This document shows, one piece after another, positions 1 to 41,188 of a DNA stretch of 64,000 nt. The stretch lies in the NCBI GenBank assembly GCA_002327255.1, contig DCUM01000165.1, positions 40,427 to 104,426 of the forward strand, read 5' to 3'. The DNA comes from a bacterium UBA2214. Lineage in GTDB: Bacteria; Zhuqueibacterota; Zhuqueibacteria; Residuimicrobiales; Residuimicrobiaceae. Numbering within the stretch: the first letter of the stretch is position 1; every line of letters begins with the position of its first letter. The position numbers and the translations under genes are program-made. The notes beneath the pieces were generated by a model. It had not been told where the DNA came from. It searched no databases and worked only from the letters and a program-made list of their open reading frames with translations.

Positions 1-1320
1 TTGGCGGTGAAGACGATCTGACCACAGGCGCCGCCGGGACCGGCGGGCAGGCCTTTGGCGACGGGTGTCGATTTCTTTTCCACGTTGGGATCGACGATCG
101 GGTGCAGCAGTTCGTCGAGTTGCGCCGGGGAGAGGCGCAGCACCGCGGTCTTTTCATCGATCAGCTTTTCCTTGAGCATATCCATCGCCATGTTGAGGGC
201 GGCGGTGCCGGTGCGTTTGCCGACGCGGCACTGCAGCATCCACAAGCGGCCTTCCTGGATGGTGAATTCAATATCCAGCATGTCGTGGAAGTGTTTTTCC
301 AGATCGAGGCGGATTTTATCGAGCTCTTTGTAGGTACTGGCCATGCCCTTCTGCAGGGAAACCAGGTGCTTGTTCTGTTCGTTCTTGGTGGCTTCATTTA
401 AGGGCGCCGGGGTGCGGATGCCTGCGACCACATCCTCGCCCTGGGCGTTGATGAGCCATTCGCCGTAGAACTTGTTCTGGCCGGTGGCCGGATTACGGCT
501 GAAGGCCACACCGGTGGCGGAAGATTCGCCCATATTGCCGAACACCATGGACTGCACGGTGACGGCGGTGCCCCATTCATCGGGAATGCCTTCGATGCGG
601 CGGTAGGAGACCGCGCGGCGGCCGTTCCAGCTCGAAAAGACGGCGCCGACGCCGCCCCACAATTGCTTTTTGGCGTCATCCGGGAATTCCTTGCCCAGAA
701 CTTCCTTGACCTTCTTCTTGAACTGTTCCACCAGAACCTTGAGGTCTGCGCTGGTCAGATCGGTATCCTGGGTATAACCCTTATCCTTTTTCATTTTGGC
801 CATGAGGTGTTCCAGCTGCACGCGGATGCCTTTGCCCTCGGCCGGTTCGATGCCCGCGGCCTTTTCCATAACCACATCCGAGTACATCATGATCAGACGG
901 CGGTAGGCGTCATAGACGAAGCGTTCGTTGTTGGTCTTTTTCGCCAGCCCTTTGATGGTTTTGCTGGTCAGGCCGACATTGAGGACGGTTTCCATCATGC
1001 CCGGCATGGAACTGCGGGCGCCTGAACGGACCGAAATGAGCAGTGGATTCTTGTCATCGCCGAATTTGGCGCCCATGATTTTTTCGACCTGCTGCAGCGC
1101 GGCGTTCACCTGCTGTTCGAGTTCGACGGGATATTTTTTGCCGTGCTTATAATAATGGGTGCAAACCTCGGTGGTGATGGTGAATCCGGCGGGTACGGGG
1201 ATCGCCAGATTCGCCATTTCAGCAAGATTGGCACCCTTGCCTCCCAAGAGTTCTTTCATGTCCGCTTTGCCTTCGGCTTTTCCACCGCCGAAGGAGTAGA
1301 CATATTTCGCTTTAGCCATT
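1..1320 (-). CDS. ppdK: Pyruvate, phosphate dikinase, N-terminal ~440 aa (partial; C-terminus lies outside the window)
   Basis: Reverse-complement translation from the ATG at 1318-1320 reads MAKAKYVYSFGGGKAEGKADMKELLGGKGANLAEM..., the PPDK N-terminal ATP-grasp signature. A GGAGG RBS sits 8 nt upstream. The frame stays open to position 1, which is why the ORF track does not list it. Confidence 0.85.
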
Positions 1321-1357: not shown

Positions 1358-3130
1358 TTATTTTTTTGCTTCGTTGTTTAACAATTGACTGTAGGCAGTT
1401 GTATCCGTGAGTACTTCAATACTCCTGATCACGGCGGAGTCGCTGACAAAGTAACTGCGCCAGTATTCGTCGCGTCCGAAGAGCTTGCCGGCGATTTCCA
1501 TCTGCAGGGAAAGCTTGATATCGTCTCTGGCTGCGAGGCGATCGCGCGCCTTGAGCGATTCTAAGGTCTGTTTGATGGCAGCCACCTGGGACTCGATTAG
1601 TGGCAAAAATTTGTTTTCCCGGGCGGCTTTTTCCAGCTTTTCCACTTCCGCATAGCCGTCGGGTTTGTAATCGAATTTTTTCGTCTGGCAAAAAGCGTGG
1701 AACTCTTCGATCATGGCGTCATCGACTTTAAAATCGCGTGGCACATCTCCATGCCGGGAGATGTAATCAAGGCTGAAATTGAAAAACATCGAGCGGCGCA
1801 ACAACTCCAGTTCGTAGCGGCTGATCTTGTCCAATTTGACCTCGATGTCGGGCTTCAAGCCACCGCCGCCGAGGACCGGGCGCTGATTTCTCGTAGAGAA
1901 AATCTTGAGCGGCTTCTCTTCCTTCTTCTCTTCCTCTTTAAGGGTACCGGTTTCCTCATCAGCATCTACCTCATCCTCTCCGGCTACTTCACGGGCGGCC
2001 GCGGTGGTATCGGCGTTGACAAAGACGGAATTGGGGCCGCGATTAAAGACCTGGGGCTTTTGGATATTGCGCCCGCTGGGCGTGAAATACTGCATGGTGG
2101 TGATCTTGAGCTGCGCTTCACCGCGACGATCCAGCGGGACGACGGTCTGCACCAGACCCTTGCCAAAGGTCGGCATGCCGATCAGAACGCCACGATCGAG
2201 GTCCTGGATGGCGCCAGCGACGATCTCCGAGGAAGAGGCGCTGTAGCCGTCCACCAGAACGACCAGGGGCAAACTGCCGAGGACAGGCTCCTTGCGTGAG
2301 CGGAATTCCTGGCGTTTGTAATCGCCGCGGCCTTCGGTATAGACGATGAGATCGCCTTTGTTGACGAAATTTTCCGCCACCGCGGCAGCCGCATCGAGGA
2401 GGCCGCCGGGATTGCCGCGCAAATCGAGTACGAGTGACTGCAGGCCCTGATCCTTCAGTTTTTGGATCGCTTCGCCGATCTGGTCGCCGGCGCTGCGATT
2501 GAAACTGCTCAGTTTGACCAGACCGACACCCGGCGCGACAAAACCCGAAAACTGAATATCGGTGACCTTGATCTCATCGCGGATGAGGGTGAAAGTCAGC
2601 GCCTGTTCATCGCCAAAGCGTTTGATTTTGATGGTCACCTCGCTGCCCTTCTCCGTGCCGCGCAGACGGTGTGCGGTCTCGGAGAGGCGTTCCCCCTTGG
2701 TACTCTTGCCATCGATTTCAATGATCTGATCGCCTTCACGAATCCCGGCGCGAAAGGCGGGGCTGTCCGGAAAGGGCTGCTCACCCACCGTGGCCCAGCC
2801 ATTACGGATTTGGATGCGCATGCCGACGCCATAATATTTCCCCCGGGTGATGATCTCCAGTTCATCCTTGCCGTCCTCCTCGAGGAACACCGAGTAAGGA
2901 TCGAGACGATCCAGCATGCCGTTGATGCCGGCGCGAATGAATTTTTCCGCGTCGACCTCTTCGATATAACGGTCATTGATCTCCTGATAAATCTGGCCGA
3001 AGAGCTTGATATTTTTCATGGCCTGATAATAGGGATCCTGTTTTTCTTTTTGCGGGGAGGCCGCAAAGGCGCTCCCGGTACCCACCAAAACCAAAATGAG
3101 GGCGGCCAGATACACAGGTTTAATTTTCAT
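1358..3130 (-). CDS. ctpA: Carboxy-terminal processing peptidase (S41 family) with a PDZ domain, secreted
   Basis: 590-aa ORF with a signal peptide (MKIKPVYLAALILVLVGTGSAFA), a PDZ region (GDQIIEIDGKST) and S41 motifs (VLVDGYSASSSEIVAGAIQD...FGKGLVQ). Confidence 0.85.
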   Translation of the reverse strand: MKIKPVYLAALILVLVGTGSAFAASPQKEKQDPYYQAMKNIKLFGQIYQEINDRYIEEVDAEKFIRAGINGMLDRLDPYSVFLEEDGKDELEIITRGKYYGVGMRIQIRNGWATVGEQPFPDSPAFRAGIREGDQIIEIDGKSTKGERLSETAHRLRGTEKGSEVTIKIKRFGDEQALTFTLIRDEIKVTDIQFSGFVAPGVGLVKLSSFNRSAGDQIGEAIQKLKDQGLQSLVLDLRGNPGGLLDAAAAVAENFVNKGDLIVYTEGRGDYKRQEFRSRKEPVLGSLPLVVLVDGYSASSSEIVAGAIQDLDRGVLIGMPTFGKGLVQTVVPLDRRGEAQLKITTMQYFTPSGRNIQKPQVFNRGPNSVFVNADTTAAAREVAGEDEVDADEETGTLKEEEKKEEKPLKIFSTRNQRPVLGGGGLKPDIEVKLDKISRYELELLRRSMFFNFSLDYISRHGDVPRDFKVDDAMIEEFHAFCQTKKFDYKPDGYAEVEKLEKAARENKFLPLIESQVAAIKQTLESLKARDRLAARDDIKLSLQMEIAGKLFGRDEYWRSYFVSDSAVIRSIEVLTDTTAYSQLLNNEAKK

Positions 3131-3798
3131 ATTTCTCCTTCTCCAAGATCTCTACCGGTTAAGATCCTCTGGAATCGGCTCACGAAGAGCTGCCAGATAT
3201 GACGCTGAATTTCGGCGATGGAGCGATCGCCGGGAATGAGGGCAACGCGCAACGGTTCCGCCTCGGCAATGCGCAAATAGCCCTGCCGCACGCGTTCCTG
3301 AAAGGCAAGACCGGCGGACTCCATGCGATCCGCTCCCCCCAGACGCTTGACGATCCGCTTGCGAATGAGCCGGGGATCGGCATCGATGATGCAGGTCAAA
3401 TCGGGGAGCAGGCCGCCGGACCCCATCCGATTGGCGGCCTCAACCAGCTGCAAATCGAGCTGCCGGCCATATCCCTGATAAGCGGTTGTGGAATCGAAAA
3501 AACGATCGCAGACCACGATGCGATTTTCCTCAAGGGCCGGTTTGATCTGCTGCGCAACCATCTGGGCCCGGGCGGCTTCATAGAGCAGCAATTCGCTCCA
3601 GGGGCTCATCTCGGTGTGCTGCCTGTCGAGCAGGATGGCGCGAATGCGTTCCGAGATCGCATTGGCGCCGGGATCCCGAAGCGCGGTGACGGTGAAGCCG
3701 GATTGCTGCAGCTGCGCGATGAACAGGCTCGCCTGCGTCGATTTGCCGGAACCATCACACCCTTCAAAGGTGATGAAAAGTCCCCGCTTGTCCGTCAT
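3127..3798 (-). CDS. tmk: Thymidylate kinase
   Basis: P-loop FITFEGCDGSGKSTQ plus a DRF/lid region. Start trimmed to the MTDKRG Met so it abuts the upstream MATE stop. 4-bp overlap with ctp. Confidence 0.85.
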   Translation of the reverse strand: MTDKRGLFITFEGCDGSGKSTQASLFIAQLQQSGFTVTALRDPGANAISERIRAILLDRQHTEMSPWSELLLYEAARAQMVAQQIKPALEENRIVVCDRFFDSTTAYQGYGRQLDLQLVEAANRMGSGGLLPDLTCIIDADPRLIRKRIVKRLGGADRMESAGLAFQERVRQGYLRIAEAEPLRVALIPGDRSIAEIQRHIWQLFVSRFQRILTGRDLGEGEI

Positions 3799-5147
3799 TT
3801 CTGCAGGCATGGTTCTTCTTCCCGCCAGCTGCCGCCGGCAAATCGCAGCAAATTGAGTCCGAAACGAATCGTTTCATCCAGGCTCTGCACGCCCCAGATG
3901 CCGTAGATGCCCCAGCCGAGGATGAAGGCCGAAACCCAGTTAAAACCGACTTCCAGAATCAGCACAAAAACGATGGTCAGCCACATCAGCCATTTCAGGT
4001 CGCCGACGCCGCGCAGATTGCCCGAAACGACATTGTTCAGCGCCTTGGGAATCTGGGCGAATGCAAAGAAAAAGATGGCCATTTGCCCCAAAGCCACCAC
4101 CTGCGGATCGGCGGTAAAAATGGTGATCAAAGAACGTGAAAAAAGAATCAGGGTCGCGACGATACCGAGCACCAGCACCGCCATGACGCGGTGGGCGGTG
4201 CGCGCCATGCGATAGGCGAGCACGCTGTCGGCAGCGCCGAGGTTCTTGCCCATCTGACTCATGGCCGCCAGACTGAATCCCATATAAACCATGGAGAGCA
4301 GCGATTGAATGCGCACAAACAGGGTGTGCGTCGAGAGAACAATAACCCCGATTTTGGCGGCATAGCCGGTGACAACCAGCTGCCCCAACGCCCAGGTCAG
4401 TTGTTCAATGGTGGTCGGCAGTCCCGATTTGAACAGCATTTTAAAGCTCTCCCAGCGGGGTGAAGCCAGTTCCCGGAAGGAGAGAAAGACCGAAACCTTG
4501 CGTTTTCGCAGCAGATAGAAAGTCACAAAAAAACCGACGCTGTGGGCGATGCCCACTGCCAGCGCCGCGCCCTGAACGCCCAGCCTGGGAATACCGAACC
4601 AGCCGAATATTAAAACCGGACAGAGAAGAAGGTTAATCCCGTTGATGAGGACGTTGATGGTCATCGAATGGCGGGTATCGCCGATCGCGCGGATGATGCC
4701 TACGGCCACAAAATTGGTAATCAGCAAGGGGGCAAAGAGAGCGACCGTCCGCAAATAGGTCACCCCCGCCGTGCGCGCCATGACACTCTCCCCCTCTTCA
4801 ATCAATTTGAAAAGGTGAATGGCTCCGGAATACCACATCACGGCAAAGACAAAAGACATGACGATACCCATCATCATGGCCTGGCCAAAGATATGGTTGG
4901 CCTGAAAATGCTCCTGTGCGCCCAAATGGCGATTGATGATGATGCTGGCGCCGACGACGAAGGTCAGCAGTATGGAAAAGAACACCAGTATGATCTGAAT
5001 GGCCATGCCGACACCCGCAAAGGCGGCCGCACTCACTTTGCCGATGAAAATCGCTTCGATCGTCCACATGAAAGTCTGCGACGAAAGGTCGATCACCGCC
5101 GGCAAGGAGGTTTTCAGGATCGTTTTTATGGGTGTCGTTTTCTTCAA
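3795..5147 (-). CDS. MATE-family multidrug/oligosaccharide efflux transporter
   Basis: 450 aa, 12 predicted TM segments, MatE-like N-terminus (LKTSLPAVIDLSSQTFMWTIEAIFIG). Confidence 0.8.
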   Translation of the reverse strand: MKKTTPIKTILKTSLPAVIDLSSQTFMWTIEAIFIGKVSAAAFAGVGMAIQIILVFFSILLTFVVGASIIINRHLGAQEHFQANHIFGQAMMMGIVMSFVFAVMWYSGAIHLFKLIEEGESVMARTAGVTYLRTVALFAPLLITNFVAVGIIRAIGDTRHSMTINVLINGINLLLCPVLIFGWFGIPRLGVQGAALAVGIAHSVGFFVTFYLLRKRKVSVFLSFRELASPRWESFKMLFKSGLPTTIEQLTWALGQLVVTGYAAKIGVIVLSTHTLFVRIQSLLSMVYMGFSLAAMSQMGKNLGAADSVLAYRMARTAHRVMAVLVLGIVATLILFSRSLITIFTADPQVVALGQMAIFFFAFAQIPKALNNVVSGNLRGVGDLKWLMWLTIVFVLILEVGFNWVSAFILGWGIYGIWGVQSLDETIRFGLNLLRFAGGSWREEEPCLQK

Positions 5148-5198: not shown

Positions 5199-5247
5199 AA
5201 AAAGTTAAAATATCCCTGCCGGAGTGCCAAGGCACCCCGGCAGGGAT
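5199..5247 (-). terminator. Rho-independent terminator downstream of the inositol-phosphate synthase gene
   Basis: Perfect 11-bp inverted repeat ATCCCTGCCGG...CCGGCAGGGAT (5212-5247) with an inner GTGCC/GGCAC pair. On the minus strand it is followed by ATTTTAACTTTTT. Confidence 0.5.
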
Positions 5248-5272: not shown

Positions 5273-6586
5273 TCAATCGTAATATTCAAGTCCCAGATGG
5301 GTGATGAGATCTTCACCGCGCAGGAAGCGGAGGGTGTTTTTGAGTTTCATCAGCTGGATGAATACATCGTGTTCCGGATAAAGGCCGGGAAGGGTCATCG
5401 GACTTTTGTAGAAGAACGAGAGCCACTCCTGGATGCCTTTCATGTTGGCACGCTGGGCGAGGTCCATGAACAGGGCCAGATCGAGGACAATGGGCGCCGC
5501 CAGAATGCTGTCGCGGCAAAGAAAATTGATCTTGATCTGCATGGGATAGCCCAACCACCCAAAGATATCGATATTGTCCCAGCTCTCCTTGTTATCACCG
5601 CGCGGTGGATAGTAATTGATGCGCACCTTGTGATAGACGTTGGCATAGAGATCGGGATTGAGTTCAGGCTGGAAGATGGTATCGAGCACGGAAAGTTTCG
5701 ACACTTCCTTGCTTTTGAAGGATTCGGGATCGTCGAGCACTTCGCCATCGCGGTTGCCGAGGATATTGGTGGAGAACCATCCCGAAACCCCCAATTGTTT
5801 GGCTTTCAGACCCGGCGCAATCAGGGTTTTCATGAAGGTCTGTCCCGACTTGAAATCCTTGCCACTGATGGGGACGTTGTGCTGTTTCGCCAGCTCGAGC
5901 ATGGCGGGGATGTCGATGGTCACGTTGGGAGCGCCGTTGGCAAAGGGCACGCCGGATTTGATGGCGGCATAGGCATAGATCATGCTCGGGGCGATGGCGA
6001 TGTGATTTTCGACCATGGCCTTTTCAAAAGCGTCGAGCGAATCGTACGCCGGATGGTGCTGCTCATAAATCTCGGTGCTCGCGCACCAGACTATCACGAT
6101 GCGCTCGAGTTTGTGTTCGGCCTTGAACTGTGCAATATCTTTCATGAGCAGCTCGGCCAGTTCCATCTTGTTCTTGCCCTGCTTGACATGGGAGCCTTCG
6201 AGGCGTTTCACATAATACTTGTCAAAGACCGCTTTCATCGGCTTGACCGATTCCAGTTCGGGACGTACTTTCTCGATATCGCTGGGTTGCAGCACGCCGG
6301 CCGTCATAGCCGCTTCATAAGCGTTATCGGCAAAGATGTCCCAGGCCGCAAACACGATGTCATTGAGGTCTGCAAGCGGAACAAATTCCCTGATTTTGGG
6401 GACGCGATTCTCGGTGCGTTTGCCGAGGCGAATGGTACCCAATTGCGTGAGAGATCCGATGGGCTTTGCCAGCCCTTTGCGCACCAGTTCAACGCCGGCG
6501 ACAACAGTTGTGGCCACCGCGCCGAGGCCAACCAGCATGACGCCTAATTTGCCTTTGGCTTCATCAATTTTTACGCCTTTCTCCAT
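5273..6586 (-). CDS. ino1: myo-Inositol-1-phosphate synthase (MIPS, archaeal/bacterial type)
   Basis: Rossmann N-terminus GVMLVGLGAVATTVVAG and family-typical blocks (NGAPNV, SGKDFKSGQT, GWLGYPMQIKINFLCRDSILAAPIVLD). Start set at the MEKGVKIDEAKG Met. Confidence 0.85.
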   Translation of the reverse strand: MEKGVKIDEAKGKLGVMLVGLGAVATTVVAGVELVRKGLAKPIGSLTQLGTIRLGKRTENRVPKIREFVPLADLNDIVFAAWDIFADNAYEAAMTAGVLQPSDIEKVRPELESVKPMKAVFDKYYVKRLEGSHVKQGKNKMELAELLMKDIAQFKAEHKLERIVIVWCASTEIYEQHHPAYDSLDAFEKAMVENHIAIAPSMIYAYAAIKSGVPFANGAPNVTIDIPAMLELAKQHNVPISGKDFKSGQTFMKTLIAPGLKAKQLGVSGWFSTNILGNRDGEVLDDPESFKSKEVSKLSVLDTIFQPELNPDLYANVYHKVRINYYPPRGDNKESWDNIDIFGWLGYPMQIKINFLCRDSILAAPIVLDLALFMDLAQRANMKGIQEWLSFFYKSPMTLPGLYPEHDVFIQLMKLKNTLRFLRGEDLITHLGLEYYD

Positions 6587-6673
6587 GAACGAACAGCTCC
6601 TTTCAAGCAAATGATTATGATATCAGAACCAGCCCCGCTCCTGTTCGGAGTTGGAAGCATCTTTGATTCCGGT

Positions 6674-7024
6674 TCAGGAAATGATACGATTCTGCGCATC
6701 GACATGAATGATGTGCGGTATAAAGGTTTTCAATTCGGTTTCATCGAGCTGCGCATAGGCGATGATGATGATGAGATCATTTTTTGACGCCCAGCGGGCC
6801 AGGGCGCCATTGATGCACACCATCCCGCTGTCCGCTTCGCCCGCGATGAGATAGGTCTCGGCGCGGGTGCCGTTGTTGATGTTGAGCACGTGCACCTGCT
6901 CATAAGGCAACAGACCCGCGGCCTCCATGAGGGTCTTGTCCAGCGTCAGGCTGCCTTCATAATCGAGCCGGGTGTCGGTGATGCGGGCGCGATGAATTTT
7001 GGCGTGGCACAGGGTCCTCAACAT
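6674..7024 (-). CDS. panD: Aspartate 1-decarboxylase
   Basis: 116 aa. MLRTLCHAKIHRARITDTRLDYEGSLTLD contains the G-S self-processing site of pyruvoyl-dependent PanD. Confidence 0.85.
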   Translation of the reverse strand: MLRTLCHAKIHRARITDTRLDYEGSLTLDKTLMEAAGLLPYEQVHVLNINNGTRAETYLIAGEADSGMVCINGALARWASKNDLIIIIAYAQLDETELKTFIPHIIHVDAQNRIIS

Positions 7025-7042
7025 GCTGCGACTCCGTATCCG

Positions 7043-7699
7043 TTAAACATCGTGATCCGTATCGGCCGGCAGTTTTTTCCACTTGTCGGCATTTTCCGCC
7101 AGCCAGATGTAAACGATGCGCTGAATGGCCGTGAAATTGGCAAAGACGGCAATGAGCAGCAGGGCGCCGACCAGCCAGGCGTCGGAGACCAGAGCGCCGA
7201 TGCTGATGGCGATGAGCCGTTCGGGGCGCTGCATCAAACCCACCCGGCATTCCAGTCCCAGGCCCTCGGCGCGGGCGCGAACATAGCTGACCATCAGGGA
7301 GCCGGCGATACCAACGAAGACGATCATGGAAACCAGCAATCCGTATTCCGCGCCATGACTGGTTTCGTTGACAAAATAGTAGGCAATGCCGAAAAACACC
7401 ATGATCTCGGCGTAGCGGTCCAGCGTGGAATCGTATAACGCGCCGAATTTGGTCACGCGGTTTGAGGCGCGCGCCACGGCACCGTCGAGCATGTCCAGAA
7501 ATCCGGTCAGCAGCAGCAGCACGGCGCCCCGGACCAGTTCGCCGCGGCCAAAGGCGATGGCGGCAAAGATGCTGACGAAAAACGAACAGGTGGTCAACCA
7601 GTTCGGATTCAATTTCAAACGCACCAGGACGCGTATCAACGGCGTGAGCAAATTTTTGAATTGGTTTTTTATTACAGGGGGTATCAGCTCAATTTTCAT
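7043..7699 (-). CDS. CDP-alcohol phosphatidyltransferase, phosphatidylinositol-phosphate synthase-like
   Basis: Multi-TM protein with a complete D(x)2DG(x)2AR(x)8G(x)3D(x)3D motif: DMLDGAVARASNRVTKFGALYDSTLD. MIPS lies one gene away. Confidence 0.75.
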   Translation of the reverse strand: MKIELIPPVIKNQFKNLLTPLIRVLVRLKLNPNWLTTCSFFVSIFAAIAFGRGELVRGAVLLLLTGFLDMLDGAVARASNRVTKFGALYDSTLDRYAEIMVFFGIAYYFVNETSHGAEYGLLVSMIVFVGIAGSLMVSYVRARAEGLGLECRVGLMQRPERLIAISIGALVSDAWLVGALLLIAVFANFTAIQRIVYIWLAENADKWKKLPADTDHDV

Positions 7700-8436
7700 T
7701 TCGTTGTTTCTTTCTCTTGCGGGTGTTTGCCGGCGCCACCGGCCAGGACCACAAACTCCCCTTTGCGCGGAATGCCGGCCATCTCGTTCAGCAATCCGGA
7801 CAAGTTGCCGCGGATGGTTTGTTCAAATTTTTTGCTGATTTCGCGTACCAGCACCATCGGCCGGTCTCCGAGGATTTCATACAGTTCATGAAGCAGTTTC
7901 TCGATGCGCTGTGGTGATTCATAAAACACCAGGGTCCGCGTCTCGTCACAAAGCTGCTCGAGTCTTTTGCGACGGCCCTTCTTGTGCGGCAAAAAACCCT
8001 CAAAGACGAACCGGTCACAGGGTAAACCGGAAATGATCAGAGCAGGTACGAAGGCGGTGGCGCCGGGTATGGCGATCACCGCCAAGCCGGCCGTCACAGC
8101 AGCGCGCACCAGATAGAAACCGGGATCAGAGATACCCGGGGTGCCGGCATCCGAGATGAGGGCAACCGACTGGCCTTGCTGCAAACGCGCGACGATCTGT
8201 GGTGCGACGCTGGATTCGTTATGGTCATGATAACTGATCAATGGCGTGCGAATGCCATACTGCGTCAGCAAGATCCGGCTGGTTCTGGTATCCTCGGCGG
8301 CGATCACATCCACAGCGCAAAGGATATCCAGCGCCCGCAGCGAGATATCGCGCAAGTTCCCGATCGGTGTGCTGACGAGGTACAGGGTACCCGGCATGAT
8401 TTCGTTTTTTTCCGGACGCTGCCAATCCATAGCCAT
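7696..8436 (-). CDS. rsmI: 16S rRNA (cytidine1402-2'-O)-methyltransferase
   Basis: Tetrapyrrole-methylase fold motifs: LYLVSTPIGNLRDISLRALDIL...VIAAEDTR...SDAGTPGISDPG. Confidence 0.85.
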   Translation of the reverse strand: MAMDWQRPEKNEIMPGTLYLVSTPIGNLRDISLRALDILCAVDVIAAEDTRTSRILLTQYGIRTPLISYHDHNESSVAPQIVARLQQGQSVALISDAGTPGISDPGFYLVRAAVTAGLAVIAIPGATAFVPALIISGLPCDRFVFEGFLPHKKGRRKRLEQLCDETRTLVFYESPQRIEKLLHELYEILGDRPMVLVREISKKFEQTIRGNLSGLLNEMAGIPRKGEFVVLAGGAGKHPQEKETTK

Positions 8437-9995: not shown

Positions 9996-10307
9996 TCACG
10001 AGATCGGCGGCGCCGGGGCTGGCGGAATTTTTTCAGCCTCCCTGGCCGCCAACTGCTCATCCAGAGCCTGTATTTTTTTGAACAACTCCTGCACTTCCGG
10101 ATCTTCGGCGATGGGGACATCGGGATGGTGCGACAGCAATTCAAAGGTGCGCCCGCCCAATTCGTAAAACAATCGTTCAATTTCCCGTTTGAGGCCGAGG
10201 ACATCGATATGGTGTCGAATGTTTTTGCCCATCATGCCGGTTTTCTCGACAACCAGCGTGACGCTTTCCCGCAAGCCTTTGTGTAATTCACCAAACAGCG
10301 AAGCCAT
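9996..10307 (-). CDS. Small hypothetical coiled-coil protein (phasin-like?)
   Basis: About 104 aa from MASLFGELHKGL, charged and helical. No recognisable catalytic motif. Confidence 0.35.
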   Translation of the reverse strand: MASLFGELHKGLRESVTLVVEKTGMMGKNIRHHIDVLGLKREIERLFYELGGRTFELLSHHPDVPIAEDPEVQELFKKIQALDEQLAAREAEKIPPAPAPPIS

Positions 10308-10329
10308 CACCCTGCTCCTCAATGCAAAC

Positions 10330-12561
10330 TCAATTTCCCGACAGAAGGCAAACCTTCTCTACGGTGTGTTTTGATCCATAAACAAATTCAATAAAATAGA
10401 GGCCACTCGCGACGGTATCATGCCGGGCGTCTCTGCCATTCCACAGGATGGGGTATCTGCCCGCCGTCGCCTCACCCTGATACAGCGTACGCAGCTTCTG
10501 TCCCATTGTGTTGTAAACCGTTATGGTCAGCCGCTGCGCGGATGTCGAGGTCACCGGAATCTCATAATCGATATTGGTTGAATAGCGGAAGGGATTGGGA
10601 TAGGGCCGCGAAACGCGAAAAGCGATGGGCGGCTGGTCATCGGGATCTTCCGGCAACTCTTCAAGCCGAAGGAGGGCAGCGGCGGCGCAATTGATCTTGC
10701 CATAGCCCCATTGATCCTTTTTGGCGCCGCCCTGAGCCCTCGCCGTGTAGATCAGTGCCTGTTTGATGCGCGAGGCGGGCGCCTCGGGATATTTTTCCAG
10801 CAGCAGGGCGACGGTGCCGCTGACGTGGGGCGCGGCCATGCTCGTCCCCAGAGACAAGGCATGCACGCCATCGGGCAGCACAAAGGCATTGGGATAGGAG
10901 ACATCCGGCGAGTTGAAGATGCTGTAATACCCCCCGGGCCTGGCCTCCTGCGACAGCGAGCTGCCGATGATGCGGCCCGGCGCGGTGATTTCGGGTTTGA
11001 TGCGGTCATCACGGCTCGGTCCGGCCCCGGAAAATTCGGCGACCTCGCCGATGATGATAGTACCCTGCGTATCGATGGTCAAATTGTTGCCGTCCAGATC
11101 CTTCCAGGTCTCGCGCGTGGTGTAGGCACCCACCGTGATCGCACTTTTACTCGTGCCCGGGATGGTTAATGACATGCGATCGCTGACGCCCGTCTTGAAA
11201 ACCGCCTCCATACTCACGCTCGCCAGCCAAAAGTGCACCTCGCCGGCGCGGCCGCTCAATTTGACGGTCCATTCTCCCGCGTACGGCAAAACCCCCAGGT
11301 CATCACAGACTTCGATGATGATTTCCTTATCCTGGTTGAAGGGACTGACGCCCGGCTGGATATCGCTGCCCTCTTCGTAATAACCATTCCAGATCAGTAC
11401 CTGGCCATCGCTGCTGTTGCGGCCGAGATATTTGCCGTCGTTGACGGGTCCAAAGGTCTCGCCGCGCGGCGAGATGACCGTCACACTGAGCGAATGCGTG
11501 CCATCATACCAGCCGTCGAGTACAAAATGATCGTTGCCGGAACCGGCGTTGGGCGTATACTCCGGCACGGAGACGGAGATCTGGGCGCTGGAGGAGGTCA
11601 GCGAGGCCTGGGCGTGCGTCTTTTTGCCGCCTTCATTGCCGGCGGCGACGACCACGACGCGACCCGGCCCGGAGAGATCATCGATGTAACGCTCCACCGC
11701 GGTGGTACCGTCATGGGCGCCGAAATTGGTGCCAAAGCTCAGGTTGACGACGCAGGGCATGCCGAGCAGGGTGGCGACGCTGTCGATGAAGCTGATGGCG
11801 AGCAGCTGGTCGGTGCTGCTGAATTCCGACTTTAAGGCATTGCGGGTGGCCTTGACGGCAATCAGATTCGCCTGCGGCGCCACACCCGCAAAGGCGCCAT
11901 ATTCCGCGCCGCCGCCGCCGTTCCCTGCGGCGATGCCGGCGACGTGGGAACCGTGGCCGCTGTTATCTTTTTGCAACACCATCGGGTTTCCCGACAGCGC
12001 CGTATTGATCTGCGCCTCGTTATAGACCGTGCCCCCGTAATAGGAGCCGGGCGTGCTGAAATCGAGGATGTATTTGATGCGCGTTGCGCCATCCGCCGTA
12101 CGAAAATCGGGATGGGTGTAATCGATGCCGGAATCGACGATGCCGATGAGGACGTTTTTGCCGCTGAGGCCGGTTTGATCGCGCGCCTGCAGGGCGCCGA
12201 TCTCTTTCATGCTGATGTCCGCGACCGGCGTGGCGATCTGGCTGGCTTCGAGATAGCGCAAGCCGGGCACGTTCAGCAGAGCGTCCAGTTTGTCCACCGC
12301 CATGGTGACAATGGCCAGCTCGCCGCGCTGCCAGCGGATTTTTCCGCCCTGCGCTTCCATGTCGCGGCGGTGAAAGACGCCGGAGGCGATGACATCCACA
12401 GAGTGGCTGGCAGACTGTCTGGCCAGTGCCTCCGCATTCTGTTGTTTAAACCGCATCATGCCAAGGGATGCATCCATGCGCGCTGTTTGCGCCCATGATA
12501 CCCCGCACAGGGCCAGCATCATCATCATGAGCACTCGCCCAAAACGTTTCCCGGTCATCAC
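10330..12561 (-). CDS. Secreted S8 (subtilisin-family) serine peptidase with a T9SS C-terminal sorting domain
   Basis: Signal peptide. Asp block IGIVDSGIDYTHPDF, His block SGHGSHVAGIAAG, Ser block GTSMAAPHVSG. C-terminal ~80 aa (ITVYNTMGQKLRTLYQGE...SGLYFIEF) resembles a type-A Por secretion CTD. Confidence 0.8.
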   Translation of the reverse strand: MMTGKRFGRVLMMMMLALCGVSWAQTARMDASLGMMRFKQQNAEALARQSASHSVDVIASGVFHRRDMEAQGGKIRWQRGELAIVTMAVDKLDALLNVPGLRYLEASQIATPVADISMKEIGALQARDQTGLSGKNVLIGIVDSGIDYTHPDFRTADGATRIKYILDFSTPGSYYGGTVYNEAQINTALSGNPMVLQKDNSGHGSHVAGIAAGNGGGGAEYGAFAGVAPQANLIAVKATRNALKSEFSSTDQLLAISFIDSVATLLGMPCVVNLSFGTNFGAHDGTTAVERYIDDLSGPGRVVVVAAGNEGGKKTHAQASLTSSSAQISVSVPEYTPNAGSGNDHFVLDGWYDGTHSLSVTVISPRGETFGPVNDGKYLGRNSSDGQVLIWNGYYEEGSDIQPGVSPFNQDKEIIIEVCDDLGVLPYAGEWTVKLSGRAGEVHFWLASVSMEAVFKTGVSDRMSLTIPGTSKSAITVGAYTTRETWKDLDGNNLTIDTQGTIIIGEVAEFSGAGPSRDDRIKPEITAPGRIIGSSLSQEARPGGYYSIFNSPDVSYPNAFVLPDGVHALSLGTSMAAPHVSGTVALLLEKYPEAPASRIKQALIYTARAQGGAKKDQWGYGKINCAAAALLRLEELPEDPDDQPPIAFRVSRPYPNPFRYSTNIDYEIPVTSTSAQRLTITVYNTMGQKLRTLYQGEATAGRYPILWNGRDARHDTVASGLYFIEFVYGSKHTVEKVCLLSGN

Positions 12562-15328: not shown

Positions 15329-18300
15329 TCAATAGACTTCGATGAATTCTTGCTCGCGCACCAGGGCGACTTTGATGATTTTGGCCTTGGCGATCTTGGG
15401 CATGTCGATGTGAGCGATATAGATGCCGCTCGCCACCGGCAGATTGTTGTGGTTGGTCAGGTCCCAGCGCAGGAATTGGGTAGGATCTTCCTTTTCCAGG
15501 ACTTTGACCAGGCTGCCGGCCAGATCAAATATCTTCACGGTCGCATATTGGGGCATGTGGTTGAACGTCACGAAGCGGTTGACCGGATTGGTTTCGCGCG
15601 GATTAAAGCCGTAGTAGGGATTCGGGAAGACCTTAATCGCTTCGATATCCGTACCCGCGACGCTGGCAGTATAGGTGCTCGCCTTGGTGCTGAATTTGAA
15701 GACATCAGCCGCCGTGTTCGGGAGTTTCGCCAAAAAGCGGAACTGGTCACCCGCTTTGGGGGCCGCACTGGGGCCGCGGCGCGCCGCCAGGCTCCAGTAC
15801 ATCACCGGATAGTCACCGTCGAGCAGTGAAGTCATCAGGGCCGGTTTGCTATCCGCCGTGTATACGGTCTCAAAGATCCACAGCCATTCGCGCGGGCCGG
15901 CCGAAGCGGTGTTGCTGCCTGCCGGTGCCGCGAGCGTATAATCGGGCGGCCAGTACTTGCCGTCCACCAGACCGGCGGCGACGTTGTTCTCCATGAAACC
16001 GATATCGAGCTGCTTGCCGGTGACTTCATCGATGGCGACGAACGGAACGACGCGGCGATCCTGAAACACCCACCCGGGTGAGGGGTTGACGATGAACGGG
16101 GCGAATTCGGGTTTGGCCGGAGCCGATGTGGCCGCACGCAGATAGCGGTAAGCCATGGACGAATTGGGATCGTTGGGATTCTTGAGATTGCCCTGGGCAT
16201 CCGTCTCGGCGAACTTTAGCAGGACGGGATGAATCTCACTGGCGACACTGCCCAGGCCCCAGAAATCGGTGTATTCAAAGCCGTCGCACATGGCGCCATT
16301 GAATTGGCTCAAGCCGTAATCACCGGCACCTCCGGCCCAGGTCCACCAGCGGTTGGCAGCCGGTATGGCTTCCCATCCCGCCATGCCGGGCAATGAGCCG
16401 TATTCCTGCACGACCACACCGTTGAAGACGGGGCTGTTGGCGCCAAAGGTGGCCGGATCTTCATAGACTTCCTGAAAGATCGCCTTGTTCGCCGTGGCGT
16501 TGTAGAGCGACCAGAAGGTACTGTCGTTGCGCACCTTGAAATAGACTTCGTAATTGGCGTCAATGGTTTTGGTGGGATCCACCACCGTGGCGATGATTTC
16601 ACCATTGGAAGGTCCGACATGTTCCACTTCGAGAACCTCGCCATCGACGTGCATGTAGCGCACGCCGGGGTTGGGCGATTGCGGCACGGCTTTGAGGACC
16701 ACCGGGGTGCTTTCCAGCGCATGCACCGGCACTTCGGGATCGCCGTTATTGTTGTAGGCGGTGACCACGAAAAAGTACTCGGTGCCGTTCACCAGCGGTT
16801 TGCCGGTGAAGACGTCCTGGGTGATCACGAACGAACGGGAAAGACCCGTGTTGGTGCCGAACTTGACCGGTTTGTTGACGATGTAGCCGCTCGATGGATC
16901 AAACTGCAGGTCAAAGATGGTCGAGACCAGGTTATCGACATCGATGGTGGCCAGACGCCTTCCTTCGCTCAGCTGGGCGCTGGCGCTGGGCAGCTGATAG
17001 ACCACATACCCTTCGAAATGGTACCCCAAAAAGTTCTGGGTCTCGATCTCGTTGAGCAGCTCGTGATCTTCGCCCCAGTTGAGGACGATCTTTTGGTTGA
17101 GTTCGGCGACATGCACCTTGGGGGAGGGCGGCGCCACGGGGAGCACGAAAAAGTTATCGTACGCTGATTGTGCCGAGATGTCGTTGAACTTCATCACCGC
17201 CACGCTCGACTGACGGTCGCCGCCGAGGCCGAATACCGCGGCCACAACGACTTCCTGGGTATCACCATAGGCCAGCTTGAAGGGTCCGGTGATCATCTGC
17301 ATGCGGCGGTCGCCGGGGGTGAGGATGACGCCGTCGAGATCGCCGGTGCCCTGTACCGGATCGCCGGCCAGCGGGAAGCGGGTCGGATTGCCCTTGCCGT
17401 CAGTAAAAGCACTGGTGCCGGCCGGGATCAGTCCGTTCATCATGTTGTACCACTGCCGCGTGCCGTCATAGACGCCCTGGGGCGGATCGGTGATGGACGA
17501 ACCGGCGGCGAAATAGTTGAAGGCGCTCATCTTCAGGTTTTTGTAGCCATGGCGCAGCGTGCCGTTGAAAATGGCGACATCGTCCGGATTGCCGGTGGGG
17601 ACAATGGGGCCCTGGAGAAAGTCGTAGCCGCCGGCAGGCGGTGGCAACTCGAACTTGTCATAGTTGAGATCGCGCGCGTTGGCGTTGTAGACAAAGGAGA
17701 GGGCCAGCGTCGTATCGCAGCCGACGAAATCGTCGCCCGCTTCTCCGAGATCAGGGTCAGACCACGCCGCGAAGAAGCAGCTGTCGACATAGGCGTTGGT
17801 GGGGGTGTTTGACATGCCTTTGTACATCACCTTGTACTTTTTGAAGGCGACGTTGCCCAGCGCATCGGTGCGCTTGTAACCCCACAGGGTCACCTGCATC
17901 TCGATGCCGATGGGTTCGGAACCATAGAAATAACGGGTCTGGGCGGCACTGAGATCATTGACCACATACCAGATCATCTGATCGGCGCCCAACTCACCGG
18001 GTTCCTCGATTTCACCGGGGAAATCGATCTTGCCGTTGCCATTCAAATCCTGGGAGTACCCCAGATCGAGTCTGCCGTTGCCGTTGACATCATAGAACGG
18101 CGCGCCCTTCTGCCAGGGCCATTCGAACCAGTCTTTCTCGTACTGTGCCCGGATGGCGTCCACCTGGCCCGCGGTGACGGAAGAGAGGTTGGTTTCGTTA
18201 TATTCGGCGGCGTCCTGCACCAGGTCCGCTGTTTTGTAATCGCGGCGGATACGCCAGATGCGAACATCGGCCGCGTTTGGATTTTCCGCAACGCCCGGGC

Positions 18301-18652
18301 TGAGGATAGCGCCTGGCGTCAAACCGGTACGGTAAGCAGAACCACCCACGCGCAATTCCGGGGTCATGCCGTCTTTCACCATACCGCCCCACAGCAAGCC
18401 GGATTCATAGATCACCGCTGCGGTGAGACGGGGGAAGAAGGCGCCGGATTGACCGGACGGAGCCAGGGCGCCGTTGCCGGTATTGCGCATCCAGTAGGTC
18501 ACGTTATTGATGTTGAGCAACGTAATAACCGGACTGCCCGACGTTTTTTGCAGGGCAGCTTGCCTGTCCTGATCGTTTTTGGCCCAGGTCGCGGAGGAAA
18601 ACAACACCAGGGCCAACCCGGTAATTAATAGAACATATGCAAATTTTCTCAT
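15329..18652 (-). CDS. Large (1107 aa) secreted protein of unknown function with a T9SS type-A C-terminal sorting domain
   Basis: Signal peptide MRKFAYVLLITGLALVLFSSATWA. Repeated beta-rich segments. C-terminus YATVKIFDLAGSLVKVLEKED...WDLTNHNNLPVASGIYIAHIDMP matches the T9SS CTD pattern. No catalytic motif recognised. Confidence 0.7.
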   Translation of the reverse strand: MRKFAYVLLITGLALVLFSSATWAKNDQDRQAALQKTSGSPVITLLNINNVTYWMRNTGNGALAPSGQSGAFFPRLTAAVIYESGLLWGGMVKDGMTPELRVGGSAYRTGLTPGAILSPGVAENPNAADVRIWRIRRDYKTADLVQDAAEYNETNLSSVTAGQVDAIRAQYEKDWFEWPWQKGAPFYDVNGNGRLDLGYSQDLNGNGKIDFPGEIEEPGELGADQMIWYVVNDLSAAQTRYFYGSEPIGIEMQVTLWGYKRTDALGNVAFKKYKVMYKGMSNTPTNAYVDSCFFAAWSDPDLGEAGDDFVGCDTTLALSFVYNANARDLNYDKFELPPPAGGYDFLQGPIVPTGNPDDVAIFNGTLRHGYKNLKMSAFNYFAAGSSITDPPQGVYDGTRQWYNMMNGLIPAGTSAFTDGKGNPTRFPLAGDPVQGTGDLDGVILTPGDRRMQMITGPFKLAYGDTQEVVVAAVFGLGGDRQSSVAVMKFNDISAQSAYDNFFVLPVAPPSPKVHVAELNQKIVLNWGEDHELLNEIETQNFLGYHFEGYVVYQLPSASAQLSEGRRLATIDVDNLVSTIFDLQFDPSSGYIVNKPVKFGTNTGLSRSFVITQDVFTGKPLVNGTEYFFVVTAYNNNGDPEVPVHALESTPVVLKAVPQSPNPGVRYMHVDGEVLEVEHVGPSNGEIIATVVDPTKTIDANYEVYFKVRNDSTFWSLYNATANKAIFQEVYEDPATFGANSPVFNGVVVQEYGSLPGMAGWEAIPAANRWWTWAGGAGDYGLSQFNGAMCDGFEYTDFWGLGSVASEIHPVLLKFAETDAQGNLKNPNDPNSSMAYRYLRAATSAPAKPEFAPFIVNPSPGWVFQDRRVVPFVAIDEVTGKQLDIGFMENNVAAGLVDGKYWPPDYTLAAPAGSNTASAGPREWLWIFETVYTADSKPALMTSLLDGDYPVMYWSLAARRGPSAAPKAGDQFRFLAKLPNTAADVFKFSTKASTYTASVAGTDIEAIKVFPNPYYGFNPRETNPVNRFVTFNHMPQYATVKIFDLAGSLVKVLEKEDPTQFLRWDLTNHNNLPVASGIYIAHIDMPKIAKAKIIKVALVREQEFIEVY

Positions 18653-27289: not shown

Positions 27290-27438
27290 GCGTTGATCCT
27301 TTATATGGTTGAGTGCATCCGTTTCAAGACCATCCCGAACACATCCCGTCGAAAAAAAATCGCCGGATGCCAGTTGGACGCATACGACGACAGGATTGAA
27401 CCGTCAACGGCATCGGCCGGCGCCACGACGGGATGGGG

Positions 27439-27521
27439 TGCGAGAGGGGGGACTCGAACCCCCAAGTCCTTGGGACACCAGATCCTAAGTCTGGCGCGTC
27501 TGCCAATTCCGCCACTCTCGC
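27439..27521 (-). tRNA. tRNA-Leu (anticodon TAG), long variable arm
   Basis: Reverse complement folds as a cloverleaf: acceptor GCGAGAG/CTCTCGC, D-arm GCG-GAATTGGCAGA-CGC, anticodon stem CCAGA/TCTGG with loop CTTAGGA (anticodon TAG), a 14-nt variable arm, T-arm GGGGG-TTCGAGT-CCCCC, discriminator A. Confidence 0.8.
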
Positions 27522-30126: not shown

Positions 30127-31545
30127 CTACAAATAATAGCGTTCGATCAGTATGTACGACGCCCAGGCCAGACTCACGACAACGCCCAAAACGCCGGCGA
30201 GTATCCAGGCCCGTCCGGGCCTGACGCGGCGATGCACGAAGTGGTTCTGAAAGAGCAGCCAGAAAAAAGGCGCCGCGGGAATAAAGTATCTTCCCGAGAT
30301 ACCGTGCACATAGGCATCCCCCACCGGAGAATTGACCAGATAGAGTGCCAGGGCGGTGACGCCGGCGACACCGGACACCACCAGGGCGAGCACGATGCGC
30401 TGCCGCACAGAAAGGCTGCCTTCGTGATTGAGAACGGCGGCAACGGCAATGAGCAGTAAAAAAACCGCAATAATCGGCAGCGGCAACAGGGTATCGAGCC
30501 ATCCCAACTGTCCGACATGGGAGCGGATATAGAACAGCTTAAACACCCAAAAAGAACGCAGCGCAGCGCCGATAAAGAGCATGGGGCTGGCCACAACCGC
30601 CTGCGACTGTTTGTCATAGCTGGCCCAGGGTTCCAGCCAGTTGAGATCCTGTTGCGCCAGGGACTTCCATCCCCAGGTGATGGCGAGCGCCGCCAGCACC
30701 ATGAGGATCCATAACATCCATTGCCTGCGCCGGCTGGCGAATTTCTGCGCCGGCAGCAGCAGGAATACCACGGCAAAGAGGGCAAAACCCGGTTTAGAGA
30801 AAGCGATCACCAGTGTCAACAAAAACAACCCTCCGTACTGGGGCCGGCTCAATACGCCCGGATCGTGCGCGAATTTGAGGGTGCAGGCCAATAGCAGAAA
30901 ACAAAAGGCATTGATAAATCCATCCTGATGCACGGCCCCGGCGAGAAAAATGCTCATCGGCATCAGCGCAATCAGGGCCATGACCCATTTCCCGGTGGGC
31001 GTCAGGCGCAGGGCGCTGACCATCACCACCAGCCACAGCGCGAGATGGGCGAAACGTCCCAGATACATCATCACCAGGGGCGATACGTTCCCTGTTTTTC
31101 CGATCCAGATGGCCACAATGGCCGGCAGATAGGCCGGCGGTGGATAGATGGCGGAGGCTGAAAATTCATAAAAGGCCTTCTCCTCCGCCTGCAACGGCAG
31201 CCGCAAATAGTGCCATACTTTATCCAGGTCCTGACGCTGATCGCGTGAATGGAAGGCCATGCCGGGATTGATGCGATCCATGGTTTCGATCACGCTGACG
31301 GGCAGGGAATCCCCCATGGTGTTCTCATGCTTGATCGCAAAGAGCCGGCCATCGGAGAGCTGATAGGCGCGGCAGAAGTGGCGGTTTTCGTCCGGCGCCT
31401 GAAAGGGGGGCGTGATCAGCGCCCACAGGATCGAAAAGAGCGCGCCGATGATCAAAAAGAGCTGCGCCGGCGCGCGCCCCGTGCCCAACCAGGTCATGAG
31501 GGCCTGCCTGGCAGTATGACTTCTTGACAATACCTGGTTTTTCAT
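30127..31545 (-). CDS. DUF2142-like polytopic membrane protein (GT-C-like, putative glycan-transferase accessory protein)
   Basis: Start taken at MKNQVLSR. Roughly 12 predicted TM segments. First periplasmic loop carries PFQAPDENRHFCRAYQLSDG. 4-bp overlap with the upstream GT-C gene. Confidence 0.5.
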   Translation of the reverse strand: MKNQVLSRSHTARQALMTWLGTGRAPAQLFLIIGALFSILWALITPPFQAPDENRHFCRAYQLSDGRLFAIKHENTMGDSLPVSVIETMDRINPGMAFHSRDQRQDLDKVWHYLRLPLQAEEKAFYEFSASAIYPPPAYLPAIVAIWIGKTGNVSPLVMMYLGRFAHLALWLVVMVSALRLTPTGKWVMALIALMPMSIFLAGAVHQDGFINAFCFLLLACTLKFAHDPGVLSRPQYGGLFLLTLVIAFSKPGFALFAVVFLLLPAQKFASRRRQWMLWILMVLAALAITWGWKSLAQQDLNWLEPWASYDKQSQAVVASPMLFIGAALRSFWVFKLFYIRSHVGQLGWLDTLLPLPIIAVFLLLIAVAAVLNHEGSLSVRQRIVLALVVSGVAGVTALALYLVNSPVGDAYVHGISGRYFIPAAPFFWLLFQNHFVHRRVRPGRAWILAGVLGVVVSLAWASYILIERYYL

Positions 31546-39977: not shown

Positions 39978-41188
39978 GCCGTCTTTTCTCCGCAGCGCTC
40001 CCTGCAGACCTGCAAACAGATTTTTTCATAGGCCTGCGCCTTGTGACCCCAGGTGTGCTGCTGCGCGATGGTCTGGCGCGCATTTTCCCCCATGGTGGCG
40101 GCAATTTCCGCATCTTCCAGCAGTCCGGAAATCGCCGAGATCAAGGCGTCAAAATCGCCCGCGGGGCAGAGTACCCCGTCCCAGCCGTCGCGTATGATGC
40201 GCGCCAGCTGACCGATGCGCGTGGTGACGACCGCCTTGCCCGCGGCCATGTATTCAAAGACCTTGACCGGCGAATAATAGAAGAACGGCAGATTGGGATA
40301 GGGCGCCAGCACCACATCCATCAGCTGCACAAAAGCGGGTATCTTTTCGTGGGGCACATACCCGGTGAGGACGACCCGATCACCGAGTCCCCGTTGCTCC
40401 AGATAATGCCGAATGTGAGGCTCCTGACCACCGCCGGAACCCACCAGAAGAAAATGGCAGTTGGGATATTTCTGAACGACGGTGGCGATGATCCGCAAGA
40501 GGTTATCGATGCCGTGCCAGACGCTCATGGAGCCGACAAAGCCGAGGACGGGGCCGTCTCCCAGACCATAGCGGGCGGCAAGAAATTCATCGCGAATTTG
40601 CGGCTGAAATTTTTCGATATCCGCGCCATTGCTGATTACGGCGGTACGCTCCGGATCGAGGCCATGCAAATTCGTGAAATAGCGCTGCAGTTCCCGGCTT
40701 TGCATGACGACAAAATCCGCATGATGCAGCACCCAGCGTTCAATCCAGCGTGGAATCACAGGGATGCGCCAATACTGTTTCTGAAAATGCAGCGCTTCGT
40801 AAAGCGGCGGACTGTCGGCCTCGATGATCACCGGCAAGTTGTATTTGCGCGCCGTTTTGATCGCGGAAAAAAGATAGAGATCGAGACGGGCGATGATCAG
40901 ATCGGGTTTGAACGATTCGACGTGTCCCGCTTCGATTTTTCTGAATTTCCAGTTCTCCACAAAGAGTTTGAGATCGTGTACCAGAAAAGCCAGGTGGCGC
41001 TTGAGAAAATCGCGCGCCGATGCCTTGAGGGTCCCGGGTGGCAAATGGCCGGGCTGGTCCTTGAACCATACCATCTTCACCTCATGGCCGGCTGCACGCA
41101 TGGCCTTGAAAAGCTCCATGGGTTTGATGGCCGATCCGAGGGAAGCGCCATAGATGTCATAGAGATAATTAAAGTAGACGATTCTCAT
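39974..41188 (-). CDS. GT4 glycosyltransferase
   Basis: GT-B with C-terminal LAPYPNLPFFYYSPVKVFEYMAAGKAVVTT. Confidence 0.7.
   Translation of the reverse strand: MRIVYFNYLYDIYGASLGSAIKPMELFKAMRAAGHEVKMVWFKDQPGHLPPGTLKASARDFLKRHLAFLVHDLKLFVENWKFRKIEAGHVESFKPDLIIARLDLYLFSAIKTARKYNLPVIIEADSPPLYEALHFQKQYWRIPVIPRWIERWVLHHADFVVMQSRELQRYFTNLHGLDPERTAVISNGADIEKFQPQIRDEFLAARYGLGDGPVLGFVGSMSVWHGIDNLLRIIATVVQKYPNCHFLLVGSGGGQEPHIRHYLEQRGLGDRVVLTGYVPHEKIPAFVQLMDVVLAPYPNLPFFYYSPVKVFEYMAAGKAVVTTRIGQLARIIRDGWDGVLCPAGDFDALISAISGLLEDAEIAATMGENARQTIAQQHTWGHKAQAYEKICLQVCRERCGEKTA

Follow-up and report, generated by a model that had tools for sequence, protein, structure and literature searches.

Genes for a myo-inositol-1-phosphate synthase and a phosphatidylinositol phosphate synthase-type transferase point to a probable inositol lipid pathway in a KSB1 bacterium

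Does a bacterium of the poorly known candidate division KSB1 (Zhuqueibacterota) make inositol lipids? The question is raised by a small group of genes on contig DCUM01000165.1 of the bacterium UBA2214 (assembly GCA_002327255.1), lying within a stretch of 64 kb (contig positions 40,427 to 104,426, forward strand) that is referred to here as the window. An initial interpretation made from the DNA letters only (the sequence-only reading) had placed a gene for myo-inositol-1-phosphate synthase (MIPS, also known as inositol-3-phosphate synthase) one gene, panD, away from a gene for a CDP-alcohol phosphatidyltransferase, and had seen in this pair the route to phosphatidylinositol that passes through phosphatidylinositol phosphate (PIP). 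All three genes are found where that reading had put them, on the minus strand, and its interpretation is supported by homology of several kinds: the profiles matched by the transferase, its predicted fold and substrate pocket, the match of MIPS to the Bacteroides protein BT_1526, and the linkage of the two genes in 42 of the 80 best-matching loci. We consider it likely, with a probability of roughly 80%, that the two enzymes encoded here catalyse the opening two reactions of the PIP route to phosphatidylinositol, a judgement drawn from sequence comparison and a predicted structure.

The pathway that we propose would have three steps. MIPS (5273-6586) would turn glucose-6-phosphate into 1L-myo-inositol-1-phosphate, with NAD+ as a catalytic cofactor. 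The transferase would then move the phosphatidyl group of CDP-diacylglycerol onto the inositol phosphate, giving CMP and PIP as products. The metal site for this second step would be formed by D69, D72, D90 and D94 and the inositol phosphate would be held by R95, S138, Y139, R141, R143, R158, R161 and R194. Finally, a phosphatase encoded outside the window would dephosphorylate PIP to phosphatidylinositol (PI).

The catalytic signature of the transferase offers a first point of entry. The perfect D(x)2DG(x)2AR(x)8G(x)3D(x)3D motif reported by the sequence-only reading is indeed exact (DMLDGAVARASNRVTKFGALYDSTLD, at 7495-7418) and is the sole match to this pattern in a six-frame translation of the window; its four aspartates are invariant across 82 relatives of the enzyme. 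Comparison with NCBIfam profile hidden Markov models (HMMs) indicates the kind of CDP-alcohol enzyme concerned. The transferase scores 165 bits on the BT_1523 model NF052561 (cut-off 350), 160.6 bits on the archaeal archaetidylinositol phosphate synthase (AIPS) model NF040950 (cut-off 180) and 140.6 bits on the actinobacterial PIP synthase model NF045883 (cut-off 170). Scores on other models are 59 bits for IPCT-DIPPS, 31 for pssA, 26.8 for pgsA and 25.7 for ClsA, with neither the PgsA cut-offs (26.8 versus 109.1 for TIGR00560, 22.6 versus 304 for PRK10832) nor the IPCT/DIPPS cut-off (59 versus 580) being reached. The three highest scores can be set beside those of the BT_1523 orthologue of Bacteroides vicugnae (locus L086), which reaches 385 bits on its own model and only 144 and 125 bits on the archaeal and actinobacterial models respectively, so that the three characterised clades are, by sequence, about as distant from each other as the window transferase is from each of them. 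The Bacteroides protein is in fact outscored by the window transferase on both of the last two models.

Solved structures point in the same direction. The best match in a sequence search of the PDB is Mycobacterium tuberculosis PgsA1 (E 5e-26), followed by the PIP synthases of M. kansasii and Renibacterium; the comparison with BT_1523 and PgsA1 proposed in the sequence-only reading thus returns 165 bits for the former and E 5e-26 for the latter. The IPCT-DIPPS structure 4mnd is matched at E 8e-9. An AlphaFold2 model of the transferase (pLDDT 86.8) predicts an N-terminal juxtamembrane helix and six membrane helices, and when this model was compared with the PDB using Foldseek, the top 14 matches were all PIP synthases (E around 1e-8 to 5e-7, TM 0.7-0.8). 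Next came AF2299 and IPCT-DIPPS at around 1e-6 (E 5e-6 for DIPPS), with phosphatidylserine synthase and phosphatidylglycerophosphate (PGP) synthase at around 1e-2 and TM 0.5 (E 2e-2 for the PGP synthase 7drj).

The similarity to IPCT-DIPPS that appears in each of these searches (59 bits, E 8e-9 and E 5e-6) bears on an alternative that the sequence-only reading had itself mentioned, a head group or solute containing inositol phosphate. In the form weighed here, the product would be an inositol-phosphate compound that is either soluble or not a glycerolipid, such as a solute of the di-myo-inositol-phosphate type or a head group derived from CDP-inositol. A CDP-inositol route has been proposed for an alternative Bacteroides/Prevotella cluster comprising an NTP transferase, a phosphatidyltransferase and a HAD hydrolase (Heaver et al. 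2022, PMC9246714), and a gene for a HAD-IB protein lies about 7 kb from our pair, just outside the window. The DIPP synthase score is, however, far below the cut-off of 580 and below the PIP synthase scores, and PIP synthase structures match the model better than DIPPS does. Pathway searches in the window consisted of Pfam scans of about 50 selected long open reading frames (ORFs) together with tblastn, and neither these ORFs nor the transferase itself carries an NTP-transferase or cytidylyltransferase domain. As no cytidylyltransferase was found in the window, we regard the soluble product as very improbable and as weaker still than the PGP synthase alternative considered below.

If the enzyme is a PIP synthase, as we favour, its pocket should be compared with that of a characterised one. 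The phosphate of inositol phosphate is bound in PgsA1 by R94, S132, Y133, K135, R137, R152, R155 and R195 (PMC6506517), and the eight residues listed above for the window transferase align with these in the same order. Seven of the eight are identical, the exception being the replacement of K135 by arginine (R141), and all eight are invariant among the 82 relatives. Five of the pocket columns are occupied in E. coli PgsA by A, W, T, Q and Y.

A neighbour-joining tree rooted on E. coli PgsA, and carrying no bootstrap values, places the window transferase inside a large clade labelled KSB1, Calditrichota, Marinimicrobia and Kryptonia. Proceeding from the root, the order is M. tuberculosis PgsA1, then a Dehalococcoidia-labelled locus (L085) and a small group made up of a Delongbacteria-labelled locus (L048) and two Bacteroidales loci, then clades labelled Latescibacterota and Gemmatimonadota, and then the window clade. 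The last of these lies within a group bounded by the M. tuberculosis enzyme and the Bacteroides orthologues, with E. coli PgsA far outside. Clustering with PgsA or with cardiolipin synthases, an outcome for which the sequence-only reading had left room, is not seen. The agreement between HMMs, PDB sequence matches, predicted fold and pocket residues supports the placement of the transferase with the PIP synthases rather than with PgsA, PssA or the cardiolipin synthases. Judged by its sequence, which reaches none of the trusted cut-offs of the three curated models, it is a separate clade of the PIP synthase group and not a member of any of the curated equivalogs.

For the first step of the pathway, the window MIPS matches PDB entry 7NWR over nearly its full length (E 1e-172, 578 bits); 7NWR is BT_1526, the MIPS activity of which has been measured (PMC9246714). 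Close homologues of the window protein (72-86% identity) are found in KSB1, Calditrichota and Acidobacteriota, and the resemblance to mycobacterial Ino1 is remote (E 1e-4). The active site of the yeast enzyme is made up of what we take to be D320, S323, N350, L352, N354, D356, K369, K373, K412, D438 and K489. When the window MIPS is aligned to 1jkf, every one of these positions is identical, the corresponding residues being D244, S247, N274, L276, N278, D280, K293, K297, K333, D359 and K394.

Are the two genes also found together elsewhere? A scan of one genome per species found a relative of the transferase in at least 594 species genomes, and linkage was counted in the best 80 of these. (At E <=1e-30 the transferase profile matches 950 protein clusters at 50% identity, a figure that probably takes in other PIP/AIP synthase clades.) MIPS lies downstream of the transferase on the same strand and within 1 kb in 42 of the 80 loci, in three more it is found within about 5 kb, in 33 there is none within 10 kb and in the remaining two the flanks are too short. 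With 42 adjacent pairs and three more close by, the linkage is no chance neighbourhood. The MIPS-adjacent loci are labelled KSB1, Calditrichota, Marinimicrobia and Kryptonia, and the named relatives of the transferase and MIPS belong to candidate division KSB1 / Zhuqueibacterota and to Calditrichota. Metagenome-assembled genomes labelled Caldithrix sp. (L024 and L037) are among those with the pair. The gene order rsmI-transferase-(panD)-MIPS-(MatE)-tmk-Ctp-PPDK persists to transferase identities as low as roughly 40-50%, with rsmI ahead of the transferase in nearly all MIPS-linked loci.

Two of the intervening or flanking genes were considered as possible partners in the pathway and dropped. 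The panD gene separates the transferase from MIPS in only 14 of the 42 adjacent pairs, being absent from the other 28, and is probably a passenger housekeeping gene; it does nevertheless recur in the identical slot in 14 genomes of several subclades, for no apparent functional reason. A MatE-family transporter gene comes next after MIPS in the loci labelled KSB1 and Calditrichota, but a strong hairpin parts the two genes and the Marinimicrobia and Kryptonia loci do without MatE. In one locus (L036, 10001-12400) the transferase, panD and MatE genes are present without MIPS in its usual slot, which looks like a lineage-specific loss or relocation.

A number of observations weigh against the PIP route or against parts of the evidence given for it. 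The transferase lies under all three PIP/AIP synthase cut-offs (165/350, 160.6/180 and 140.6/170), the tree lacks support values, and the pocket evidence is not fully specific, because the sulfate-1 site of PgsA1 has been reported to be conserved in other CDP-alcohol phosphotransferases (PMC6506517). The synteny may partly be a matter of inherited gene order, the neighbouring rsmI, panD and tmk being housekeeping genes. In the sister clades from Latescibacterota and Gemmatimonadota, the same enzyme with the same pocket is encoded with no MIPS within 10 kb, in a string that runs yidC-mnmE-rsmG-transferase-tmk-Ctp-RNase G. Cultured marine Gemmatimonadota are reported to contain phosphatidylethanolamine, phosphatidylglycerol (PG), diphosphatidylglycerol (DPG) and an aminolipid, not PI (PMC11651109). 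Searches of the open-access literature brought up nothing relevant on inositol lipids in KSB1, Calditrichota or Gemmatimonadota, and neither biochemical nor lipid data for any organism of KSB1 or Calditrichota. Lastly, a PIP phosphatase was not found in the window, where tblastn with the Bacteroides PgpA-like gene gave no match.

The loci of the Latescibacterota and Gemmatimonadota type comprise L044-L046, L050-L057, L060-L067, L070-L073, L076, L078, L080, L083 and L084; L071 and L063 (around 10001-10620) are examples, and several of the loci are labelled only 'bacterium'.

These same sister clades bring in another explanation, that the transferase is a housekeeping PGP synthase that has replaced PgsA, with MIPS adjacent through inherited order and feeding something else. 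Its surroundings are of the housekeeping kind, both in the window (rsmI, tmk, Ctp) and in Latescibacterota and Gemmatimonadota (yidC, mnmE, rsmG, tmk, RNase G), and the 33 related loci that lack MIPS within 10 kb, the reported presence of PG and DPG but not PI in cultured Gemmatimonadota (PMC11651109) and the fact that canonical PgsA was not seen in the window or the examined loci are all compatible with it. The last point means little, however, as the window takes in no more than 64 kb of a contig that measures at least 274 kb, and the features of the enzyme itself argue the other way: 26.8 bits on the pgsA model against a cut-off of 109, no match in the window to E. coli PgsA by tblastn at E <=0.01, a resemblance of the model to PGP synthase structures only at E 1e-2, and five pocket residues shared with PgsA1 that differ in E. 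coli PgsA. MIPS, moreover, adjoins the transferase gene in 42 loci across several phylum labels, the window's own clade included. We consider a PGP synthase quite unlikely.

Under the PIP route, a phosphatase would still be needed for the last step. The sequence-only reading saw no PIP phosphatase in the window, and the tblastn search and the Pfam scans of about 50 long ORFs bear this out: the ORFs contain no PgpA, PAP2, inositol monophosphatase, HAD or NTP-transferase domain, and no second CDP-alcohol enzyme. When the window and 86 loci were searched by tblastn for the PgpA-like phosphatase, GtrA, PAP2_3 and an LPG-synthase-like protein, matches came only from the Bacteroidales loci L082 and L086. 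We know of no PIP phosphatase that has been identified in actinobacteria or archaea. The only phosphatase conserved near the pair is an MtnX-like HAD-IB protein (TIGR01489, above cut-off), encoded directly after PPDK in 13 loci that have the transferase-MIPS block; among the loci long enough to show it, about half do. On the window's own contig its gene lies just past position 1 of the window (L001, 19462-20094), some 7 kb from the pair. As a candidate for the PIP phosphatase, the HAD-IB protein is a lead only.

Some representatives of the wider family carry a PIP-synthase-like domain fused to another: GT4 (P0299), PF01663 (P0360), GtrA (P0322), thymidylate kinase (P0310) or DUF4833 (P0292). 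PF01663 is a type I phosphodiesterase/alkaline-phosphatase family, and this fusion could point to a phosphatase partner. The fusion to a GT4 glycosyltransferase could point to glycosylation of PI; both it and the GtrA fusion are found in distant family members.

The GT4 and GtrA fusions are also relevant to whether PI would be the end product. The transferase might be a PIP synthase for which PI is a mere intermediate, the end products being glycosylated PI, similar to the PI mannosides of mycobacteria, or inositol sphingolipids. Bacteroides makes inositol phosphoceramide from PI (PMC9246714), and many glycosyltransferases are encoded in the window at 30-64 kb. The fusions, however, are in distant family members, more than 20 kb separate the pair from the glycosyltransferase locus, which has the look of an ordinary polysaccharide cluster, and no PAP2-type inositol-phosphoceramide synthase or GtrA is found near the pair, whether here or in the non-Bacteroidales loci. 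We think such end products unlikely; the function of the two genes would be unchanged by them.

The genes around the pair are listed in Table 1. Every gene in the first 22 kb of the window is on the minus strand, and the order of transcription is rsmI, transferase, panD, MIPS, MatE, tmk, Ctp and PPDK. The TGA stop codon of rsmI and the ATG of the transferase share bases (ATGA), the gaps from the transferase to panD and from panD to the MIPS ATG measure 18 and 87 bases, and a terminator-like hairpin lies 26 nt 3' of the MIPS stop codon. The overlap, the short gaps and the terminal hairpin suggest that the four genes from rsmI to MIPS probably form one constitutively expressed transcript that ends at the hairpin. 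Because its stop overlaps the transferase start, rsmI is probably the first gene of this transcript. Constitutive transcription would fit an inositol lipid that is a regular membrane component of this KSB1 bacterium. The MIPS ORF reaches 5' as far as a TTG at 6610, but an AAGGAG sequence 10 nt upstream of the ATG at 6586 and a separate gene call that also yields a 437 amino acid protein indicate that the ATG is probably the true start. The YEGS self-processing site of PanD is present in the translation.

Table 1. Features of the transferase-MIPS region; positions are those of the window unless a locus is named
Feature	Position	Strand	Basis or remark
rsmI (16S rRNA C1402 2'-O-methyltransferase)	7696..8436	-	TIGR00096, 239.8 (cut-off 167.9)
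CDP-alcohol phosphatidyltransferase, PIP-synthase type, 218 aa	7043..7699	-	PF01066, 62 bits
Catalytic signature DMLDGAVARASNRVTKFGALYDSTLD (D69, D72, D90, D94)	7418..7495	-	exact D(x)2DG(x)2AR(x)8G(x)3D(x)3D
panD (aspartate 1-decarboxylase), 116 aa	6674..7024	-	PF02261; TIGR00223, 126.2 (cut-off 106)
MIPS (myo-inositol-1-phosphate / inositol-3-phosphate synthase), 437 aa from ATG	5273..6586	-	PF07994, 355 bits; PF01658, 110 bits
Terminator-like hairpin, 16-bp stem (11 G-C pairs), then T-rich tail	5212..5247	-	sequence inspection
MatE-family transporter	3795-5147	-	Pfam/NCBIfam
tmk (thymidylate kinase)	3127-3810	-	Pfam/NCBIfam
Ctp (S41 C-terminal processing protease)	1358-3130	-	Pfam/NCBIfam
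PPDK (pyruvate phosphate dikinase), start only	1-1319	-	Pfam/NCBIfam
HAD-IB in other loci	L003 19114-19761; L005 19057-19713

Elsewhere in the window, a large surface-polysaccharide locus occupies 30127-63959 on the minus strand. It encodes four PMT_2-type GT-C membrane glycosyltransferases (31542-33341, 45801-47045, 47042-48691 and 51344-53110), a DUF2142 protein, an MBOAT protein with a GDSL-like protein, a carbamoyltransferase, two Wzx-like flippases and a Wzy-like protein, together with several GT4 enzymes, a DegT aminotransferase and YdjC. Two ORFs on the minus strand have no Pfam match, one of 1107 amino acids (15329-18652) and one of 557 amino acids (55186-56859); the former has as its neighbours PorV, in the midst of type IX secretion genes, as well as a GWxTD protein and an S8 protease. 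ARAGORN and Rfam detected a single RNA gene in the window, a tRNA-Leu (27437-27521, minus strand).

What would the pair mean for the biology of these organisms? The chemistry of the PIP route is already established in actinobacteria, Bacteroides and archaea, and the locus is to be seen as a sound annotation and not as a discovery. What is new, as far as the sequences indicate, is a clade of the enzyme that the curated models do not cover, from a phylum about which little is known and encoded in a housekeeping string with no PgpA-type phosphatase nearby. The annotation predicts PI or a derivative of it in the membranes of KSB1 and its relatives, which are uncultured and common in sediments, and such membranes would widen the known range of bacterial inositol lipids. 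A bolder and distinctly tentative proposal is that the PIP route is an old and constitutively expressed trait of much of the FCB (Fibrobacteres-Chlorobi-Bacteroidetes) group, held in a conserved housekeeping string by KSB1, Calditrichota, Marinimicrobia and Kryptonia and perhaps also by Latescibacterota and Gemmatimonadota, in which the final phosphatase would be unrelated to the Bacteroides PgpA-like enzyme and might be the HAD-IB protein encoded after PPDK. Were this so, bacterial inositol lipids would be far commoner than the literature states and a candidate for the PIP phosphatase would be to hand.

Among the closest known systems is the inositol lipid cluster of Bacteroides thetaiotaomicron (BT_1522-BT_1526). 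The sequence-only reading had named BT_1522 for comparison, but that gene encodes inositol-phosphoceramide synthase; BT_1526 encodes MIPS, and the PgpA-like BT_1525 is the phosphatase that acts on PIP (Heaver et al. 2022, PMC9246714). As in Bacteroides, the window has a long, bacterial-type MIPS with a PIP-synthase-type transferase close by on the same strand, the transferase being 43% identical to the BT_1523 orthologue of B. vicugnae, and a two-step route through PIP is predicted in both. The resemblance has its limits: the PgpA-like phosphatase, GtrA and PAP2_3 synthase were not found in the window or in the non-Bacteroidales loci, the pair sits in a housekeeping string (rsmI, panD, tmk) rather than in a dedicated lipid cluster, and the transferase, at 165 bits against a cut-off of 350, is not of the BT_1523 type.

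The actinobacterial PIP synthases (M. tuberculosis PgsA1 and the Renibacterium and M. kansasii enzymes) are the best relatives of solved structure, with 33-34% identity to the mycobacterial enzymes, the same signature motif and a pocket conserved but for the change of K135 to arginine. The window transferase nonetheless falls short of their model NF045883 (140.6 bits against 170), its partner MIPS is of the long type seen in Bacteroides and eukaryotes and is barely similar to mycobacterial Ino1, and the pair has no pimA or acyltransferase as an operon partner. Archaeal AIPS is matched with a similar HMM score (NF040950, 160.6 bits against an unmet cut-off of 180) and catalyses the same type of reaction with inositol-1-phosphate as acceptor; here, however, the host is a bacterium and the donor is presumably CDP-diacylglycerol rather than CDP-archaeol.

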